A stretch of 64,000 bases of DNA from Lytechinus pictus (Eukaryota), in contig NC_087245.1 of NCBI RefSeq assembly GCF_037042905.1, positions 32,738,001-32,802,000 on the forward strand, read 5' to 3'. Below the pieces are notes generated by a model, which saw only the letters and a program-made list of their open reading frames with translations, was not told the origin of the DNA and did not search any database. The translations under genes were made by a program, and so were the position numbers. Below, one piece after another: positions 1 through 16,172 of the stretch (position 1 is the first letter of the stretch; the number at the start of each line of letters is the position of its first letter).

Positions 1-1412
1 TCATCCTGGAGAGCGAACCGCTTCTCCAACTTGGTAACCAAGTCAGAGAAGGCGATATTTGGGTTGCTCTCCTGGATGAGAGCCATGAACTTACTAGCTT
101 CGGCCTCCAACGCCAGACACAGCTGATATTTCTTGTCTGCATCAGACATGCCGTGTCTTTCGGTGTATAGTTGGAACTTTGAATAGAAGGCCGCCCAACT
201 TCCTTTGCCGTCGAACGAAATAGTCTTCGGCAAAGAGGTTGGTCTAGAAGGGGGCCTTCTGTCGTCATACTCCGGTACCACAGGTCTTGAGGCCGAAGTA
301 AGTCTGGTGACGCGGGGCGGCTGATTTCTTGTTGACAGCCCCCTGTATCCAGGGCTTACTGATGGCCTTGTGGTGTTTCTATGTTCACTGTATACTGGGC
401 CTCCATGTCCATCTCCTTGAGGTCCAGCGCCTTGATACACAGGGTTGCTACCCCCATATTGCAAGTCACATGGTCCTTGGGGAGAGGTTTGCGGGGCCAC
501 AGTGTTAGGATAGTGTGGCGGATATCTGCCTCCAGCCCATGGTGGGCAATACCCACCGTAGGCGGCAGCAGGGTTGCAGTATGGAGGAGCTGGCTGTCCA
601 GTTCCTCCGAATGGCATCATCTGCATCATCCTAAACATCACGCCATACATTTCCTCGTACTGTGCTTGTGTAAAGTGTGGAACGGCCTGTGGATAGCTAT
701 GTGGAGGTGTCTGGGTTGTTTGATTGAACATTGCTGGTCGGCCACCCTGAGTACCGGGAGCCTGACCATGCAAATCTACTTGGGCATGAGGACCAAATTG
801 GAACTGGGGTCCTGGTGGGGTAGCTACCTGGGCACGAGGACCACATTGGAACTGGGGTCCTGGTGGGGTAACTTGGTGGGGACCCTGTGGTGGGAACAGG
901 CCATCGTTCCATCCTGAAAACCCAAATTGATTAGCCCAGAGGGACTTAGCCCTATCTTCTGGAGAGGCCGAAGGCTGCTGAGTAAAAGCGCCACCTGGCC
1001 TCCCCCCTGTGAAAAATGAGGGGGCCTCCCCGGCCTGTGTCTGAGAAGATTGGCCTACAGCACCCTGTGCGCTATGTGCATGGGTGTGCTGTGGCCAAGC
1101 CTCAAACGCCTGGCTTACGGGGGGCTCCTTAGACGGAATAAGTGGAACGCTCGTAGAAGGCTCGTCTCCTTCGGAGCGCACTTCTCTGCGGTCCACATTA
1201 TGAGCCGTTGTTGTTGGCTCATAATCAAAGGCGTAAACTAACAGTTCCGCCTTCGGTATATGAGGTATCGACAAGAATGTATCCGGAGTAAGGTCGGCCG
1301 CCTCCCTCGCATGTAGAATGCGGTTGGCGGTGGCCATACCCACTCCGGGCAGACTCATCAATTCCTCAGACGAACACAAGTTGATTTTGATTCTTGGTAT
1401 GTTGCTCGCCAT
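1..1412 (-). CDS. gag: Gag (ORF1) of a Ty3/Gypsy-type LTR retrotransposon, 3'-truncated by the window edge; N-terminal double HhH domain, Pro/Gln/Gly-rich linker, capsid-like domain
   Basis: Manual translation from ATG at 1412 is open for ~470 codons to position 1: MASNIPRIKINLCSSEELMSLPGVGMATANRILHARE...PKTISFDGKGSWAAFYSKFQLYTERHGMSDADKKYQLCLALEAEASKFMALIQESNPNIAFSDLVTKLEKRFALQD. The FDG..W..F...F.......K...L...L...A...L...L.KRF pattern is typical of Gypsy Gag capsid regions. The ORF lies downstream of a PBS and is absent from the ORF track, presumably because no stop falls in the window. Confidence 0.85.
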   Translation of the reverse strand, partial: MASNIPRIKINLCSSEELMSLPGVGMATANRILHAREAADLTPDTFLSIPHIPKAELLVYAFDYEPTTTAHNVDRREVRSEGDEPSTSVPLIPSKEPPVSQAFEAWPQHTHAHSAQGAVGQSSQTQAGEAPSFFTGGRPGGAFTQQPSASPEDRAKSLWANQFGFSGWNDGLFPPQGPHQVTPPGPQFQCGPRAQVATPPGPQFQFGPHAQVDLHGQAPGTQGGRPAMFNQTTQTPPHSYPQAVPHFTQAQYEEMYGVMFRMMQMMPFGGTGQPAPPYCNPAAAYGGYCPPWAGGRYPPHYPNTVAPQTSPQGPCDLQYGGSNPVYQGAGPQGDGHGGPVYSEHRNTTRPSVSPGYRGLSTRNQPPRVTRLTSASRPVVPEYDDRRPPSRPTSLPKTISFDGKGSWAAFYSKFQLYTERHGMSDADKKYQLCLALEAEASKFMALIQESNPNIAFSDLVTKLEKRFALQD

Positions 1413-2750
1413 CTTGATGTAGAAATTAATCAGTAACAAAAGTTAAATTCCAAAATTGAACTGTAATTAACCAAAAATTATCCTGCAGACTACTTTGTCT
1501 TGCGGATAAAATCAAAATAAATCTGGGACAAAATTAACTTTTTGAAAAAAAAATGAAAGAGAATTAACAGAACTAATCTCACAATATCCTGAGAATGTAA
1601 TCAAATTAAAATCCAGAGGCTACCTTGCCTAAAAAATAAAATTCCTGTATGATTTAATTCTTAGGAAAGAAAAGAAAAAATGCAAACAATCGAACGCTCA
1701 CTTGTTCAAAGAAAGATATGAAAAATATATAGAAATAGTTTCAAATAAATAAATTCTTATTATTTATTTATTTTTTTTCTGTTTTTTGAACAAAAGTTAA
1801 TATTTACAAGTACAATTTATCTAAATATATACAAAATTTATTTAATTATACAATTTATAATTAATTGATTGAATATGAATTTAATACAAATGTCAGCAGC
1901 ACAGCTCACAGCATTCACTCAACGGCAGCACCAGCAACAAAATATATTATACAACAGCAGCAGCAACAATTCAATTACACAACGGCAGCAGCAATAAACA
2001 ACAAAATATTCAATACAGACGCAGCAGCAACAACAAAATAATTAATACAAGACTGAATTTCCTTATCTCCTGAGACGTGACCAAAAAATTTCTGGTGTTT
2101 TCTCCAAAAAACACCCAGAAATATAATTACAAAAAAATACTAACAGCAGCAGCAGCAGCGCGGCGGTCAAAGGAGAAAAGCAAATTCAGGCTTGTAATAA
2201 AATAATCAACTCACAACATCAATAATATTCAGCAATACATTCACACACACCACATCAGTAAACACAGTCAAACGCAATCAAAATTTCATCAAAGTCAATC
2301 ACACTCGGTGGCCACAAAAATATATCCTAACGAGGGAAGATTTAAATATATTGTCAACAAAATGAGTGGATATTTACCCTAAATAGTACAACGTATAATG
2401 TTTTGTCCAAAAAAATCCGATTAGCTCCTGTCGAGCTAGCCGCTGAATTCCTTCAAGGCCAGCACGGCAGTGCCGATCGGTAAAAAAATAGAGTATATTT
2501 ACGGAACTAAAAATCAAACTTTTTCCACCAAAAAATAAAATCTCAAACTAAAATAATATGTTTCTTTTTGTTTTATTTAATATTATGGACGACACAGAGT
2601 CAAACAGCTCAAATTAATAAAAAGCCTAAAATTTTCAAGATGGCGGCGGCTTTTTTATATTCGGCCACGGCCAACGCAGATTCTGCAACGGCGTTGGCTG
2701 TGGCGAAGTAAAGAAAATGTTTTGCCGAAAATAAAATAAAAATCGCTTTA

Positions 2751-2763
2751 ATCCTCGTCGCCA
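2751..2763 (-). promoter_or_regulatory. Primer-binding site complementary to the 3' end of tRNA-Ser(GCU)
   Basis: Minus strand reads TGGCGACGAGGAT, complementary to ...AUCCUCGUCGCCA, the metazoan tRNA-Ser(GCU) 3' end. It directly abuts the putative LTR. Confidence 0.8.
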
Positions 2764-3066
2764 GTAAAGAGGGGGGCCGATAACATAAATAATAATACAC
2801 TCACTATACACATATAAACTTCACACCGGGAGAAAGCCTTACCTTATTCTTGTTATCTATCCAGGCACTGTGACAGCTCTCTTACAACAGGTCCGCTACG
2901 ACCGGGGGTTGGGTATGGAATCTTGTGGTTGAGTGGCGTGTGTAGAATACCGGTATATGTGTGTGTTGTATACAGCTGAATGCAGGTCTTGTGTTTGTTC
3001 GTCCCGCCGGTGGGTCATGTGACATCGTATGCTTAATAACTAATAATCCCTACTAATCCCCTAACA
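2764..3066 (-). repeat. Putative 5' LTR (~300 bp)
   Basis: Minus strand begins TGTTAGGGG at 3066 and ends CCCCCCTCTTTAC next to the PBS; unrelated repeat sequence resumes at 3067. No second LTR is in the window, so the outer boundary is inferred. Confidence 0.6.
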
Positions 3067-5089
3067 CCATATTGCTTCCGCGCTGCGCGCGGATAAATGA
3101 CAATATTGCAGTTCTCCTCTGTTTCCCCCACCCTTTCTCTAACCCTGTTTTTCCACCTCAGCTATACGTGTTTCTTGCCAGTTCAAGTTCAAATGTATAC
3201 ATGAGGGCATGGAATTAGAGTAAGGTTAGGCCGAAGTGTATGAAGTCTTTTTTTTTTCAAATTGATCGCGAAACTTCTGGTCGGGTCGACACCAGGCGGG
3301 TCAAATCTTTATATCAATTTCTGCCGTCACCTCCACTAGGGCAACTTCTCCCGCTTTTCAGCTCATTATTTAACAACCATAATTTTGGGGCAAACGGGTT
3401 TCTAATTAAAAAAAAAGAAGGTATAAAATTTGTGTCGTATCAAATAAAAAAGTACAATATTTTTTAAATCAAATTCTAGTAAATTTCATGTCATTTCCCT
3501 GCCCTGTCCTATTTTGCGCCCTCAGTTTGAATGACACTTAAGTTTCAAAATGTTCAAAATGAAGCGCTTCAAGATTAGTCAAAGACATTATACATCATCC
3601 TTTTTATATAATTTTAATAAATCACAGAAGTTTCAACTTTTTGAGCGGTATTTTCCTTGTAATGAAGTTAAATAATCTTAGAAAATCAATTGAATTAGAG
3701 CCCATGGGTATAGAGATATCTGCATGTAATGAAACGTCCGACCTTTAAAATTTCAGAGTTTCATTGCTCTGCGCGGGGAAGAATATCTTCCTCCCGGCAT
3801 ATCTTCTCCTCTGTTTTGCGAGTTAAATATATGCACTGTGGCTAAATTGTAATCAAATCTGATCTTTCCGAGGGAAGCATTCAATATGACTTAGAGAATA
3901 CCATTATTTCGGGACCCTTTTCTTTGCCAAAAAATTATAAAATGCATGAGCTTCCGCGCTTCGTGCGGGGTAATTATTATTATAATTTCCTTCATTTTAT
4001 CCCTTTTTGTGCGTTCACAATCACTTTTGAAAACAAGATTCAAAATCACAATAGAGTCAACTGAATTGGAGCTGATACAGGTACTAGAGACAAGATAGAC
4101 GGCTCCTTTTCATTTTAATTTATGAAACACCGAAAGCTTCGCGCTTCGCGCAGGAGGGGGAAACTCCCCATCCCTGCACCCACCCCCTAGGGAGCGCGCT
4201 TCGCGCGCTCTGTAAGTGTTGGCACGCTTCGCGTGCATTTACCGCCCCCTCCAAAATGAAATCCTGGCTACGCGGTTGCACTAATACGAGGTTAGTATAC
4301 ATAGGCGGATCCAGCTTTTGGCGAAAGGGGGGGCGCACTGTCGAGCGGCGCACATATTTTTGCACTTCACCGGCGCCATAAAAGAAAATGTTGAAAAGGG
4401 GTAAAGTCTGACCCTGTCAAATGCTCTTTTCAAAATGTAGGATATCCAGTCATGCCATTTTGCATGACCACACGCAGATAATATTTCCGGGGGGGGGGGG
4501 GGGGGGCAAGACTCGAAAATTTGGTGCACATCTCACATTTGCACATTTTTCATAGTGTTCATGAAATGTTTAAGGAAAAAAATTGTTTTTCACAACAGTA
4601 GATCGCGAATGTGCCCCCCTTCCCCCTTGCTGCGTACGACCATTCCCTGAACTTCTGAAGTCCACTTAAACATATCTCATTATAACAGAAAATATACATC
4701 AATTTAAACATATAATCTTTCTAAAACATATATAGAGAGAGATTGAAAAACTTATTAAAGAAAGAAACAAGCAAACAGTAACACAAATTATGCATGTTAT
4801 GTGCGATTTCAAAATCTCGTGTATTAACCCTTTTATTGCGATGAGGCCAATACTTTTGTATATTAATAGAGATACAAGGTTTTTTTTTACTATATGTATA
4901 TATATATATATATACACAGGGGCGTCGATCCTTTTTTTAAGATTTGGCGGGCAAAATCATGAATCAACTTTCCAAAGGCGCTCGATATCACACAAAACAA
5001 ACAAACTCACACAAACACACACACACATATGCATATATATATATATATATATTTATGACTCATGAGATAGAAGCATATATCTCACCAAC

Positions 5090-12194: not shown

Positions 12195-13644
12195 GTGAGT
12201 TGATGCTACACTTTCAACAAAAATCTCTAGAAATTAAAGAGAAATTTAAGCATTTTGATTTAAATGGGAGCTGATTCATGGAAATGAATTTCTACTCATA
12301 TTTTAGATTTAGGCTTCCAACCATCTGAGTTATTTTTATTACATTTAGGCTTATTCATAGGGAGAGTAAAGATGTACCTATCTATTATGACAACTCACTG
12401 ACTAAGCAAAGAATTGACGGGAGATGATAGAAAATTTCCTGTTTGATTTCAGCGGGTTGACTTACTCAATGCTACAATTAGGTCTGAATAAGCATAGATG
12501 TGAATATTTTCATGATATTTTATCAAAGTCCAGCTAATAAAGCTTTGATTAAGGGTCAATAATGTTAATTATAACTAAAGTAACTTCTAACACTCCAATT
12601 ATCATAGGTAGAGTAGTGACCATAGCGCCTTTTTAAAACCATTAGAATTCAAATTGGTGCTATCTAGTACCAACTCTTGGCATAGTTTTTATTTTCCTTT
12701 AAACAATATTATTGTTATCATTATTATTATTATTATTTTATTATTATCATGAATATTGTCATCATTATCATTATTTTTGTTCTTCTTGTTCTTCTGGAAA
12801 CAGTACAGTCCACCGTCTGGTGTATTGTCGTACTGGTGAAGTGCAGCGTGCAAGTGTATGTACATTATCCGATAAAAAATTGCTTACAGCGTGCAAGTTA
12901 AAACAACCACCGTTATTAACGGAGCTGGGTCTTTTGTACCTCTTGTTTAAAGATGTGTAGAGAGGTACAATTAACTGTGCTGTTGGGGAGGGAGTTCCAA
13001 GGTCTTATCCAATCTGGGAAGAAGCTCCTCTGGTAGACAAGTGTTCTGGCAAAAGGAACAAAGATCTTCTGAGAATGACCTCTATGCATGGATGTGGATG
13101 GAGTGAGGAAGGTATGTGGGATGTCAATGAGTGAGTTGGTAATACAGTAGATCATCACCACCTTGGCCTGTGCCCTACCCATCTTGTAAAGTTGGCCATT
13201 TGAGCTGGTCCAGCATGGCTGTTACACTGCTTGTTCTACGGTGATCATTACAGACGAAGCGTGCATAGCGTCGCTGCACCATTTCAAGCTTTTTTATATT
13301 TGCTTGCGTGTGAGGGTCCCATATTATGCTGGCATACTCCATGATTGGTTGCAGGAGAGCTTTGTAGCACAGTTCCTTGACCTTTCTTGGACATGGCCGG
13401 ATATTTCTCTGGAGGAAGGCACGTGTGGAGTTGGCCTTTTTGGTTACAGCATTTATATGTTGATTCCAGCTGAGGTTCCTCTGCAGCTCAACTCCAAGAT
13501 ACTTTGCTGTAGTTTTATCAGATATAGTCTGTCCATGGATGAAGTAAGGCTTGAAGATAGGTTTGCGCTTATTTGTGACATGAAGTACTTGACACTTCTG
13601 TGGATTGAATTCCATCAGCCAATCATGCTCCCATCGTTGCATCA

Positions 13645-14490
13645 TCAGCCAATCATGCTCCCCTCTTGGAGATGAATGGCATCTTCCTCTGTCTTGACGT
13701 TGGCATTAACCATGCAATCATCAGCAAAGAGCCTTACTGTTGAGTTGTTGGAGAGATACTCTGGCAGGTCATTGATGAAGATGAGAAAGAGCATTGGCCC
13801 GAGGACACTGCCTTGCGGAACGCCTGATGTTACTTGGCTGGTGTTGGAGATGGATCTGTCCAGTACAACGCGTTGGGTCCTATTACTCAGAAAGTCAGCT
13901 ATCCAATGGTGAGTGTGATCTCGGATTCCATAAAATTGAAGCTTGTGTAACAGGTGTCCATGCGGTACTTTGTCAAATGCTTTAGAGAAGTCAAGGAGTA
14001 TCATTACCAGTTGACCCTTGTCATCAATGGTTCTAGCAAGATCTTGGACGGCAAGAATCACCTGAGAAACACAGGATCGTTTCTTGCGAAAACCGTGTTG
14101 AGCATCAGACAATACATTGTGGTCTTCAAGGTGGGTCATGACGTCACTAAGAACGATGTGCTCTAGAATCTTACAGGTCACAGATGTCAGAGAGATAGGC
14201 CTGTAGTTCTCTGGTTTACTACGGTCGCCTTTCTTGAAGATGGGGACAATGTTAGCCGTCTTCCATTCAGCAGGGATGATACCTTGATCTAGGGAGGCTT
14301 GAAAGAATATGGAGAATATTGGTGTCAATTCGATGGCAAGTCCCCTCAAAAGTCTGGCAGGAATTTCGTCAGGACCAGATGCCTTATGGATATCAAGCTC
14401 AGACAGAATGTTATGGACCCCTGGGGGAGAGATGATTATATGATCCATTGATGGGTAAGGACTAGGCCCTTTGTCTCTCAGGCTGGTCAT
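13645..14490 (-). pseudogene. LINE reverse transcriptase domain fragment
   Basis: ORF-track 281-aa product with the non-LTR RT core motifs through FADD, flanked by frameshifts. Confidence 0.9.
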
Positions 14491-14867
14491 ATCTTCATCA
14501 TGGTTGAATAGAATTGTTGGCTTAAGATGTTGGCCTAAGAGAGACTGTCAGCAGTAGTCAGACCATCATAAGACTTTAATAGTGCTACACCTGAGGCATC
14601 ATGGCGCTTGCTGTTTACAAAACTCCAGAAATGCTTTGGATTACTTGTGGTGTCTGGACTGACAATATCTGTCAAGTACTTGTTGTAAGCTTTTTTGCAG
14701 GCAATTCTGGAATGTCTCTTGACCTGCTGGTACTTCTCAAAGTCAGCTTGGTCATTGCTGGTCTTCGCTCTGTTATAGTACTTTTTTTCTTTCTTGAGAG
14801 CCGTTTGACAGAGCGAGTTATCCAGGGCTGGTTGTATCTAGTTGATGACATCTTTGAAGGTACATGC

Positions 14868-15810
14868 TTATCCAGCAGCTTTGTCAGAGTTGTTTTTATT
14901 GTCAAGCCACATGTCTTGTACAGAGCTAGAAGTACAGTATTGACCAGTAAAGCTGTTCTGGAATACAAGGCAATCCTTCTTCAGGTTCTCTAAGTCTGCC
15001 TGCTTCCAAAGGTAGATCTTTCTCTTCACGGGTTTGCGTCTGCTAGCTTTAATAGAGGACACCACAGACACGATATCGTGATCACCAATTCCAGGAAGGG
15101 GAGAACACTTGTCAACAAGGGTAGGTCTGTTCTTAAGGAAGAGGTCAAGAAAACTGTTCTGCCTTGTTGGAAAATCTACAATTTGTTCAAGCCCACAGTT
15201 ATGAAGCATGTCCAATAATCTCATGTTGACAGCATTTTGATATTGGTTCCTGTCAAACGCTAGGGTGGTCCAATTGATGTCAGGGAGATTTAAATCCCCT
15301 CCAAGCCACAAAACAGTGTTGTGGTGCTCAGCGTTAATATCCTCTATCACTTCACAAAGGTCATTCATGTAAGCAATCGAACTGGATGGTGGGCGATACA
15401 TAGCACAGATAACTAGGGATTGGTGCCTGTCAAGATGAAGTTTTATAAAGACTGCGTCTATCTCCCGATCCAGTCTGTAGGTTAGACGCTCAAATACAAG
15501 GTTGTTATTTATTGCAATGCATACTCCTCCATACCCATCAAGACGATCCTTCCGAACTACATCGTAGCCTGGGGGGAACAATTCTGAACTGCATATGGGA
15601 CTGTTAAGCCATGTTTCAGAGCCAAGAATAATATCAGGATCAGTAGAGTCAATAAGAGAACCAAGTTCTTCCTTTTTATTCTTGATACTTTGGAAATTGA
15701 TGTTCAAGATTTTCATCTTATGCTTAACCTGACCTCCTTTCCGCACGGTCTTTTGACGGGTAGGAGATGAAGAAGCTAGTGGAGGGCCAGGGCTGAGTGG
15801 CGTTATCATG
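14868..15810 (-). pseudogene. LINE apurinic-like endonuclease domain fragment
   Basis: ORF-track 350-aa product. The first ~36 aa (poly-Ile, from 15920) are flanking microsatellite, not LINE. Confidence 0.88.
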
Positions 15811-16172
15811 TTTATTATAATAATTAAGATAATAATTATTATTAACCGTATCAGACATCTGAGCAGGGCAACTTTAATACATTGTTGCCTGCATAAGACT
15901 GGGATCAAATGGCCGGTCAATAAGTTTCCATTTGTTTATCCACGGACCAATTTATTGCCCGTTCAGGAAAGTCGATGAGAAAATGCTTGGAAATGTAGCG
16001 GGCAATAAGGCAGAGCTAACATCCGGGTATTCTACGCGTTTTTGTACGCGTCCTTGAACTGCGCAGTGCTATACGTCACAATGTTAATAAAGTTGAGACA
16101 ACGCTGGATACTGCATTCCCAGGCCAGTCAATATTGCTTTATTATTATTAATATTATTATTATTATCATTAT

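Follow-up and report, generated by a model that had tools for sequence, protein, structure and literature searches.

Elements of the Ty3/Gypsy group (Metaviridae) possess long terminal repeats (LTRs), a tRNA primer site, a polypurine tract, a 4-bp target-site duplication, a Gag with capsid and CCHC knuckle, and a -1 frameshift signal, all of which they have in common with the element described here, and the order protease, reverse transcriptase (RT), RNase H and integrase (PR-RT-RH-IN) is also found in its full-layout partners. TG..CA termini are usual, not universal, in Ty3/Gypsy elements. The clade to which our element belongs differs from the usual members of the group by a helix-hairpin-helix (HhH) domain at the N-terminus of Gag and by TatD as third open reading frame (ORF3). 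In addition, the family found in our sequence has TA..TA termini; in one further family of the clade the ends are TG..CA. Chromoviruses carry a chromodomain at the end of the integrase (PMC12440569), and the clade possesses a putative chromatin reader at this place too, but a PHD finger. Juno and Vesta from bdelloid rotifers are likewise Gypsy-type elements with a nuclease as third ORF, in their case a DEDDy exonuclease with intact catalytic residues as described in the relevant part of the paper (PMC5408684). The ORF3 of the clade has a different nuclease fold, TatD, and the words TatD and helix are absent from the main text of the Juno/Vesta paper (PMC5408684).

Troyka elements and Kuafuorterviruses are LTR elements of the same marine phyla and have non-canonical termini (PMC12440569, PMC11673190). 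Identity with Troyka was rejected, because Troyka has CG..CG ends and a 3-bp duplication in contrast to TA..TA and 4 bp here. The main text of the papers on Troyka and on Kuafuorterviruses contains no PHD, TatD or HhH (PMC12440569, PMC11673190), that of the papers on mollusc and annelid elements no PHD or TatD, and the annelid paper no helix or HhH either. For placement in named Gypsy clades (MolGy, Mag, CsRn1) the motif search of readable supplements, made without labelled references, gave nothing. In the literature, with Repbase and GyDB outside the search, no description of an HhH-Gag, an integrase-PHD or a TatD ORF3 in Gypsy elements was found; a named clade or a Repbase entry with this layout may exist.

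Non-autonomous elements that keep gag are known from wheat. RLG_Quinta (with RLG_Cereba) and RLG_Sabrina likewise keep gag, are without RT and integrase and amplify, and the wheat non-autonomous elements have, just like the subfamily described here, LTR ends and primer site in common with the autonomous partner (part of PMC11302176). Our subfamily differs from Quinta and Sabrina in its animal host and in that the protease frame and the frameshift site are kept as well. It also outnumbers the full-layout copies 22 to 5 among close copies, unlike Quinta and Sabrina as far as that part of the wheat paper describes them.

The element was found in a stretch of 64,000 nucleotides from Lytechinus pictus (contig NC_087245.1, positions 32,738,001 to 32,802,000), which is called the window in the following. 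Its features inside the window are:

3072..3075, minus strand: target-site duplication of 4 bp adjoining the 5' LTR and repeated after the 3' LTR, outside the window
2765..3071, minus strand: 5' LTR of 307 bp with TA..TA termini; identity with the 3' LTR 99.7%
2751..2763, minus strand: primer-binding site (13 nt) pairing with host tRNA-Ser(GCT) at its 3' end, CCA included
1413..2750, minus strand: untranslated leader, 1.3 kb, with CAG/CAA-rich repeats seen in the sequence; common to the copies
1..1412, minus strand: first 470 codons of a 775-aa gag ORF; the window's left edge cuts off the remainder, along with the -1 slippery site and the protease frame
1221..1397, minus strand: predicted ComEA/EEPD1-type HhH domain, Gag residues 6-64 (profile, alignment, predicted model)
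1338..1346, minus strand: first hairpin, G-V-G, residues 23-25, canonical (alignment)
1257..1268, minus strand: second hairpin, I-P-H-I, residues 49-52, without glycines clade-wide (GhG in 0/67 relatives)
234..1220, minus strand: Pro/Gln/Gly-rich low-complexity linker, residues 65-393, of different length among families and weakly constrained (omega 0.6)
1..233, minus strand: N-terminal part of the capsid domain, which begins at about residue 394 and resembles PNMA/Retrotrans_gag (profile matches)

The whole element has a length of 6386 bp, its 3' LTR is found some 3 kb beyond the left edge of the window, and a polypurine tract is present. The 3' end of tRNA-Ser(GCT) has 18 matches in the genome, and ARAGORN identified tRNA-Ser(gct) at all three that were checked. 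Near the end of gag a -1 slippery heptamer is followed by a hairpin, and heptamers of like type stand at the matching place in six of nine Gags checked (two from the window family). The protease frame shows a DTA motif and then a stop, which recurs in 15 of the 19 deleted-type copies checked. Downstream of the protease the window copy contains no RT, integrase core, PHD or ORF3, and all that remains of pol is a decayed RNase H end and a piece of the integrase zinc finger. Thus the leftward extension, from which the original prediction had expected to recover pol, yielded no usable pol: RT, most of RNase H and the integrase core are missing. An autonomous element at the window site was rejected, as RT, integrase core and third ORF are missing. 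By its structure the window copy is a Ty3/Gypsy (Metaviridae) derivative, and it is a very young, non-autonomous LTR element keeping gag and protease; the youth that had been presumed from its unbroken ORF is borne out by the near identity of the LTRs. Elsewhere in the window (13175-15935, minus strand) we found a broken non-LTR retrotransposon with an Exo_endo_phos endonuclease and an RT in separate frames, an ordinary LINE remnant.

A search of the genome gave at least 45 matches. Twenty-eight of these are close copies, which were all compared with one full-layout copy: 22 have the window's deletions, five show the full or partial full layout, and one has a different deletion. The gag frame is open through the knuckle in 14 of the 28 (12 deleted-type and two full copies). 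In 14 of the 15 family loci holding an LTR pair the two LTRs are 97-100% alike (93% in the remaining one), so that the deleted subfamily is still spreading, and 4-bp duplications together with TA..TA ends are seen in nine of these 15 loci. Between the deleted subfamily and its partners the non-coding remnant is about 20% diverged, gag-protease 7-10%. According to its layout the deleted subfamily makes only Gag and Gag-protease, and it presumably must borrow RT and integrase. Another deletion derivative of the window family (L083:1739-5039) has lost most of gag, protease and RT and kept integrase, PHD and much of ORF3. At L015:1398-7892 gag and pol form a single 2165-codon frame; its siblings have two frames. 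A second family is represented by L017 and L046, neighbouring copies about 9 kb apart with HhH-Gag and protease; no RT was detected in L017, and this family is possibly an independent gag-protease satellite.

The gag ORF starts on the minus strand with an ATG at 1412, is open up to the left window edge and reads exactly as quoted in the original prediction. Once the neighbouring stretch is added, the full Gag of 775 aa consists of HhH, linker, PNMA-like capsid and CCHC knuckle. A capsid-like region had been expected in frame about 390 codons downstream, and the conserved block indeed starts near residue 394; the Pfam PNMA match covers residues 422-501, the knuckle lies at 717-732, and to PNMA2 capsid structures the capsid shows a weak match only (E 0.05). 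Gag residues 1-60 match Pfam HHH_3 with E 9.2e-8 and 32.5 bits (cut-off 27), the match spanning model positions 2-36 of 65 and hence the first half only, and Pfam HHH with E 3.4e-7. The score of full-length Gag against HHH_3 is borderline (26.7-27.4 bits, cut-off 27). The domain reaches residue 64 (window position 1221) and is therefore longer than first proposed. For the AlphaFold2 model of residues 1-70 (pLDDT 84) the best structural match among 48,161 chains is ComEA 8dss (Z 9.3, rmsd 2.2 Å over 65 residues), followed by Tex (Z 8.0) and the ComEA-like 2duy (Z 7.7). Foldseek places 8dss first too, but with E 0.048. A profile of ten N-termini of the family, compared with solved structures, finds EEPD1 first (E 1.7e-12, two domains), and also ComEA 8dss (3.5e-8) and 2duy (9.7e-6). 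A language-model search with the HhH returned HHH_3-type clusters only (best 0.92), while residues 1-60, used in a word-based search for homologs, gave none among three candidates, and the Gag-profile version of this search gave four proteins only. Profiles and model confirm the prediction: the Gypsy-type Gag begins, in frame, with an HhH fold of the ComEA/EEPD1 type.

To see how far this fusion extends we calculated a tree of RT/RNase H with 23 rows, which are elements of the L. pictus genome only. The RT identities in this genome fall into two groups, one of at least 69% (33 of 150 scored) and one of at most 57%. One clade of 13 rows comes out with a support of 100/99. HhH is found in 12 of the 13 rows, PHD in all 13 and TatD in ten, where the HhH of two rows was read from adjoining loci and no gag was seen in the thirteenth. 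Regarding the three rows without TatD, the ORF3 of one runs off the fetched stretch, and the other two are copies of one family in which none was seen. In the outgroup none of the ten loci has HhH, PHD or TatD, with a gag-like ORF in range in nine of them. The layout of the clade is therefore a Gag of HhH, linker, capsid and CCHC knuckle, then Pol (PR-RT-RH-IN-PHD) by -1 frameshift; most families add a TatD ORF3. The original prediction of a capture by one lineage was too narrow, as the HhH is a trait of the whole RT clade (12/13 compared to 0/10 in the outgroup) and occurs in bivalves too. For the same reason a recent capture by the window family alone was rejected.

Profile searches for relatives outside the L. 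pictus genome found a capsid in 149 of 153 proteins. Where at least 120 aa precede the capsid, HhH is present in 87 of 103 related Gags, a share that is biased upward because the search profile included the HhH, and 16 of the 103 show no clear HhH; it is present in one of the 46 Gags with a shorter N-terminal part. Independent Pfam matches were obtained for 27 of 30 related Gags, a sample drawn from the HhH positives. The families keeping the HhH have Gags that are only about 25-35% identical and belong to several phyla, with Lytechinus pictus, Dreissena, Mercenaria, Pinctada and Mytilus as named carriers of HhH-Gag. Gigantopelta and Lingula are among the close Pol matches (Pol evidence only), and a Pol fragment labelled L. 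pictus is 99% identical to the window family. The occurrence of HhH-Gag across phyla could be due either to old descent or to horizontal transfer. Judged from the sequences, the HhH is best explained as a putative ancestral N-terminal Gag module of one Ty3/Gypsy clade of marine invertebrates.

Codon models were applied to the 14 copies with intact gag, kappa being held at its fitted value. Omega is 0.175 for the HhH (p 9e-7 against 1), 0.094 for the capsid, 0.305 after the capsid and 0.599 for the linker. If only the 12 RT-less copies are used, all four values remain below 1 (HhH 0.196, p 5e-5; capsid 0.106; after the capsid 0.339, p 3e-4; linker 0.619). Thus the dN/dS comparison suggested earlier reveals that the HhH is under purifying selection, the RT-less copies included. 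Two points limit the reading of these numbers: the test is biased towards constraint because 14 broken copies were left out, and recombination may have imported part of the HhH signal, because in the 5' half of gag the deleted copies are almost as similar to the full-layout copies as to one another. Between deleted and full-layout copies dS is 0.09 in this 5' half and 0.53 after the capsid, which suggests that gag may be exchanged between them by co-packaging. The HhH-Gag fusion is real, selected, clade-defining and apparently undescribed.

It is less clear whether the domain binds DNA. With ComEA (HHH_3, PF12836; 8dss, 2duy) and EEPD1 (9yi2) the Gag HhH has in common the profile, the fold, the first GhG hairpin and the arginine after helix 2, but it differs from both by the absence of the second-hairpin glycines (67/67), by not being basic and by the fusion to a capsid protein. 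The first hairpin is GhG-type by pattern in 47 of 67 aligned relatives (GVG in the window copy), its second glycine being kept in 82%; GhG of the second hairpin is found in none of the 67. The double HhH of the original prediction is thus right for the fold but not for the motif, since the first hairpin reads G-V-G and the second I-P-H-I. In ComEA one lysine is essential (K63 in V. cholerae, K166 in G. stearothermophilus), and without it DNA binding is lost according to the parts of the two papers concerned with it (PMC3879209, PMC9747964). At the position of this lysine, which we mapped by alignment, the window copy has threonine and only 4% of the 67 relatives have K or R; the position before it (+2 after the hairpin) is K or R in 40%. 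The first domain of EEPD1 resembles the Gag HhH in having no lysine at the third position after the hairpin. The median net charge of the HhH is -2 among the 67 relatives, as in the window copy, and the best-conserved residues (N11, L18, I32, R36, D63, F64) are structural in appearance. With no second GhG, no key lysine and no basic character, the domain does not support ComEA-style DNA binding as it was stated, and such binding remains uncertain. As the domain fails two motif tests, the label "HhH fold" is safe, whereas "ComEA-like DNA binder" is not. For EEPD1, which is the nearest type in animals, it is described, in the part of the study dealing with its (HhH)2 domains, that these alone do not bind DNA and that binding rose with domain number (PMC12988330).

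The L. pictus genome also contains host HHH_3 genes (L133:912-1883, L132:2245-3684 and L136), including an EEPD1-like exon with two HhH domains, and in these host genes the glycine hairpin is kept at the second position, unlike in the Gag HhH. As candidate donors, the host EEPD1-like gene and other host domains score 31-34 bits with the clade profile and ComEA 33 bits with a smaller profile, so by sequence the donor may have been either a host EEPD1-like gene or a bacterial ComEA.

The full-layout partners carry two further domains which have to be considered. The integrase end of the clade is a PHD finger of the DIDO/PPS/CFP1 type (e.g. L049:1148-1312, minus strand), with PPS and DIDO as best PDB matches (E 4e-16) and with similarity also to the CFP1, TAF3 and BPTF fingers. 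Among 120 Pol hits it occurs in 59 of 62 close matches with complete integrase tail and in none of 17 distant ones, and the aromatic-cage pattern is kept in 57 of the 59 fingers. Fingers of the PPS/DIDO/CFP1/TAF3/BPTF type are those which we take to read H3K4me3, and the assignment of their cage residues is assumed in the same way. The PHD of the clade is accordingly a predicted H3K4me3-type reader and would be better placed than the HhH as chromatin reader; given its resemblance to these fingers and the kept cage pattern, the choice of the insertion site may rest on the integrase. A crude test of flank CpG gave no sign of CpG-island targeting (observed/expected 0.65 for 15 family flanks, 0.63 for six outgroup flanks and 0.53 for the window background; p 0.54 and 0.68).

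ORF3 matches Pfam TatD down to E 2e-36. Its C-terminal part is a class II TatD domain and its N-terminal region varies greatly in length, the ORFs comprising 440-1270 aa (e.g. L016:7968-9290, L019:481-2541, L058:1479-5279). Of the class II motifs HxH is found in ten of ten ORF3s, E in nine, the first H in eight, the second H in five (strict pattern) and ExD in nine. The genome has 62 TatD matches, many of which adjoin clade elements. In the family of L128 and L129, HhH and PHD are kept, but the 4-5 kb that follow pol contain no TatD. The activities described for TatD enzymes are those of a 3'-exonuclease and an AP endonuclease (PMC10085689, in part). Three raw RNA runs, about 6% of each sampled, cover gag with a depth of 0-4 in both orientations, and no clear splice to ORF3 was seen in these samples. 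At L049:996-1166 one contig and a small number of RNA reads join or end close to the ORF3 start, at an intron-like pyrimidine tract; the ends are not GT-AG, and the support is slight.

What the HhH does for Gag can be read in several ways. Tentatively we regard it as a weak, avidity-driven DNA tether on the capsid, which we consider possible rather than probable. An extension N-terminal to the capsid would face outward in such particles. Each HhH would grip the DNA backbone weakly and without sequence preference via its one intact hairpin, the many copies on long flexible capsid linkers would bind by avidity, and this would keep the particle or integration complex on the host chromosomes, where the integrase PHD would then select marked chromatin. 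A weak multivalent grip is the most economical reading because most relatives retain the first hairpin and none the second GhG, and because EEPD1 binding depends on the number of HhH domains; an increase with this number fits avidity on a multimeric Gag. As far as sequences can tell, chromatin tethering by the HhH, which the original prediction had named as one option, is plausible. However, DNA binding is not assured with the second GhG lost in 67/67 and the ComEA lysine nearly always absent (K/R in 4%), the charge of -2 also speaks against a tether, and the clade already has a chromatin reader on its integrase.

A wider version of this idea, which we find rather unlikely as a whole, would see in the clade an old inhabitant of echinoderms, molluscs and probably brachiopods equipped with a two-step kit for chromatin targeting and cDNA processing, made from host DNA-repair and chromatin parts. 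The HhH coat would hold the particle on chromosomes, the integrase PHD would steer insertion, TatD would trim or repair the cDNA, and RT-less satellites would supply their own HhH-Gag in cis. MLV p12 holds the particle on chromosomes much as proposed here for the HhH coat.

Alternatively, the HhH might be a protein-interaction module which has mostly given up DNA binding and pairs with itself as a matrix-like layer aiding Gag assembly, similar to the (HhH)2 pair of XPF-ERCC1. This we judge unlikely, although the degenerate DNA-binding motifs would fit and a homodimer model passed with a score of 0.46 compared to 0.01 for the best of three controls (runs agree in at least 94% of contacts, pLDDT 93, no supplied alignment used). 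The calibration set contained 30 microbial one-chain pairs, of which 21 reached this score, and 29 eukaryotic pairs, of which 17 did so (7 of the 16 from animals); of 23 single chains none did. As only one of seven eukaryotic pairs without an older solved relative passed, the result may reflect memory of solved HhH pairs. Moreover, the interface is not clade-wide, since at its centre only 20% (L57) and 14% (Y60) of the 67 relatives have a hydrophobic residue, and most have an acidic one. HhH-mediated pairing is reported for XPF-ERCC1 and Mus81-Eme1, but the same part of that study found self-association of the EEPD1 HhH region to be negligible (PMC12988330).

The HhH could also act on the element's own nucleic acid, either by capturing RNA in cis or by holding cDNA. 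The cDNA might then be handed to the TatD ORF3, which would trim its ends or repair it, much as the HhH serves the nuclease fold in EEPD1. We think a role on the element's RNA or cDNA improbable, too. The RT-less copies keep gag under selection, also in its subfamily-specific part (omega 0.34 after the capsid, p 3e-4), which argues for a benefit in cis, and TatD accompanies the HhH in ten of 13 clade rows with HxH in all ten and ExD in nine. But one family has HhH and PHD without TatD and the deleted subfamily keeps its HhH without TatD, which argues against an obligate HhH-TatD pair, and the CCHC knuckle of Gag already serves RNA. Furthermore, carried by a long linker on the capsid domain's far side, the HhH would lie away from the particle interior.

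Even more doubtful is a docking on a host protein, such as an import factor, a chromatin or DNA-repair protein or a restriction factor, for which the fold would serve as scaffold only. Core residues are conserved and DNA-contact motifs are not, and surface positions vary widely between families, as expected if the host partners differ; yet the first hairpin is still kept in most members and there is no candidate partner. That the HhH segment is a neutral passenger or a chance resemblance is highly improbable, for although the Pfam score of full-length Gag is just at the cut-off (26.7-27.4 bits) and 16 of 103 related Gags have no clear HhH, this reading is contradicted by an omega well below 1, by the conservation across families and phyla and by the fold match to ComEA.

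The matrix position of animal Gypsy Gags and the route of their particles to the chromosomes are poorly known. With the HhH a foldable and selected domain of 60 residues stands at this position in many families, so that a direct test on a small protein is possible; if it does not bind DNA, the HhH fold has been repurposed by a retroelement. The PHD at the integrase end would represent a second, independent invention of a chromatin reader, by a PHD rather than a chromodomain, and TatD a new nuclease cargo. Annotation lists genes of this clade among host proteins, as "uncharacterized" or "hypothetical", and some of the Pol relatives even as genes of bacterial MAGs; recognising the clade therefore helps to clean up such annotations. 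Two Pol relatives of the clade (P0263 and P0282) contain a Tpt1/KptA domain (PF01885).
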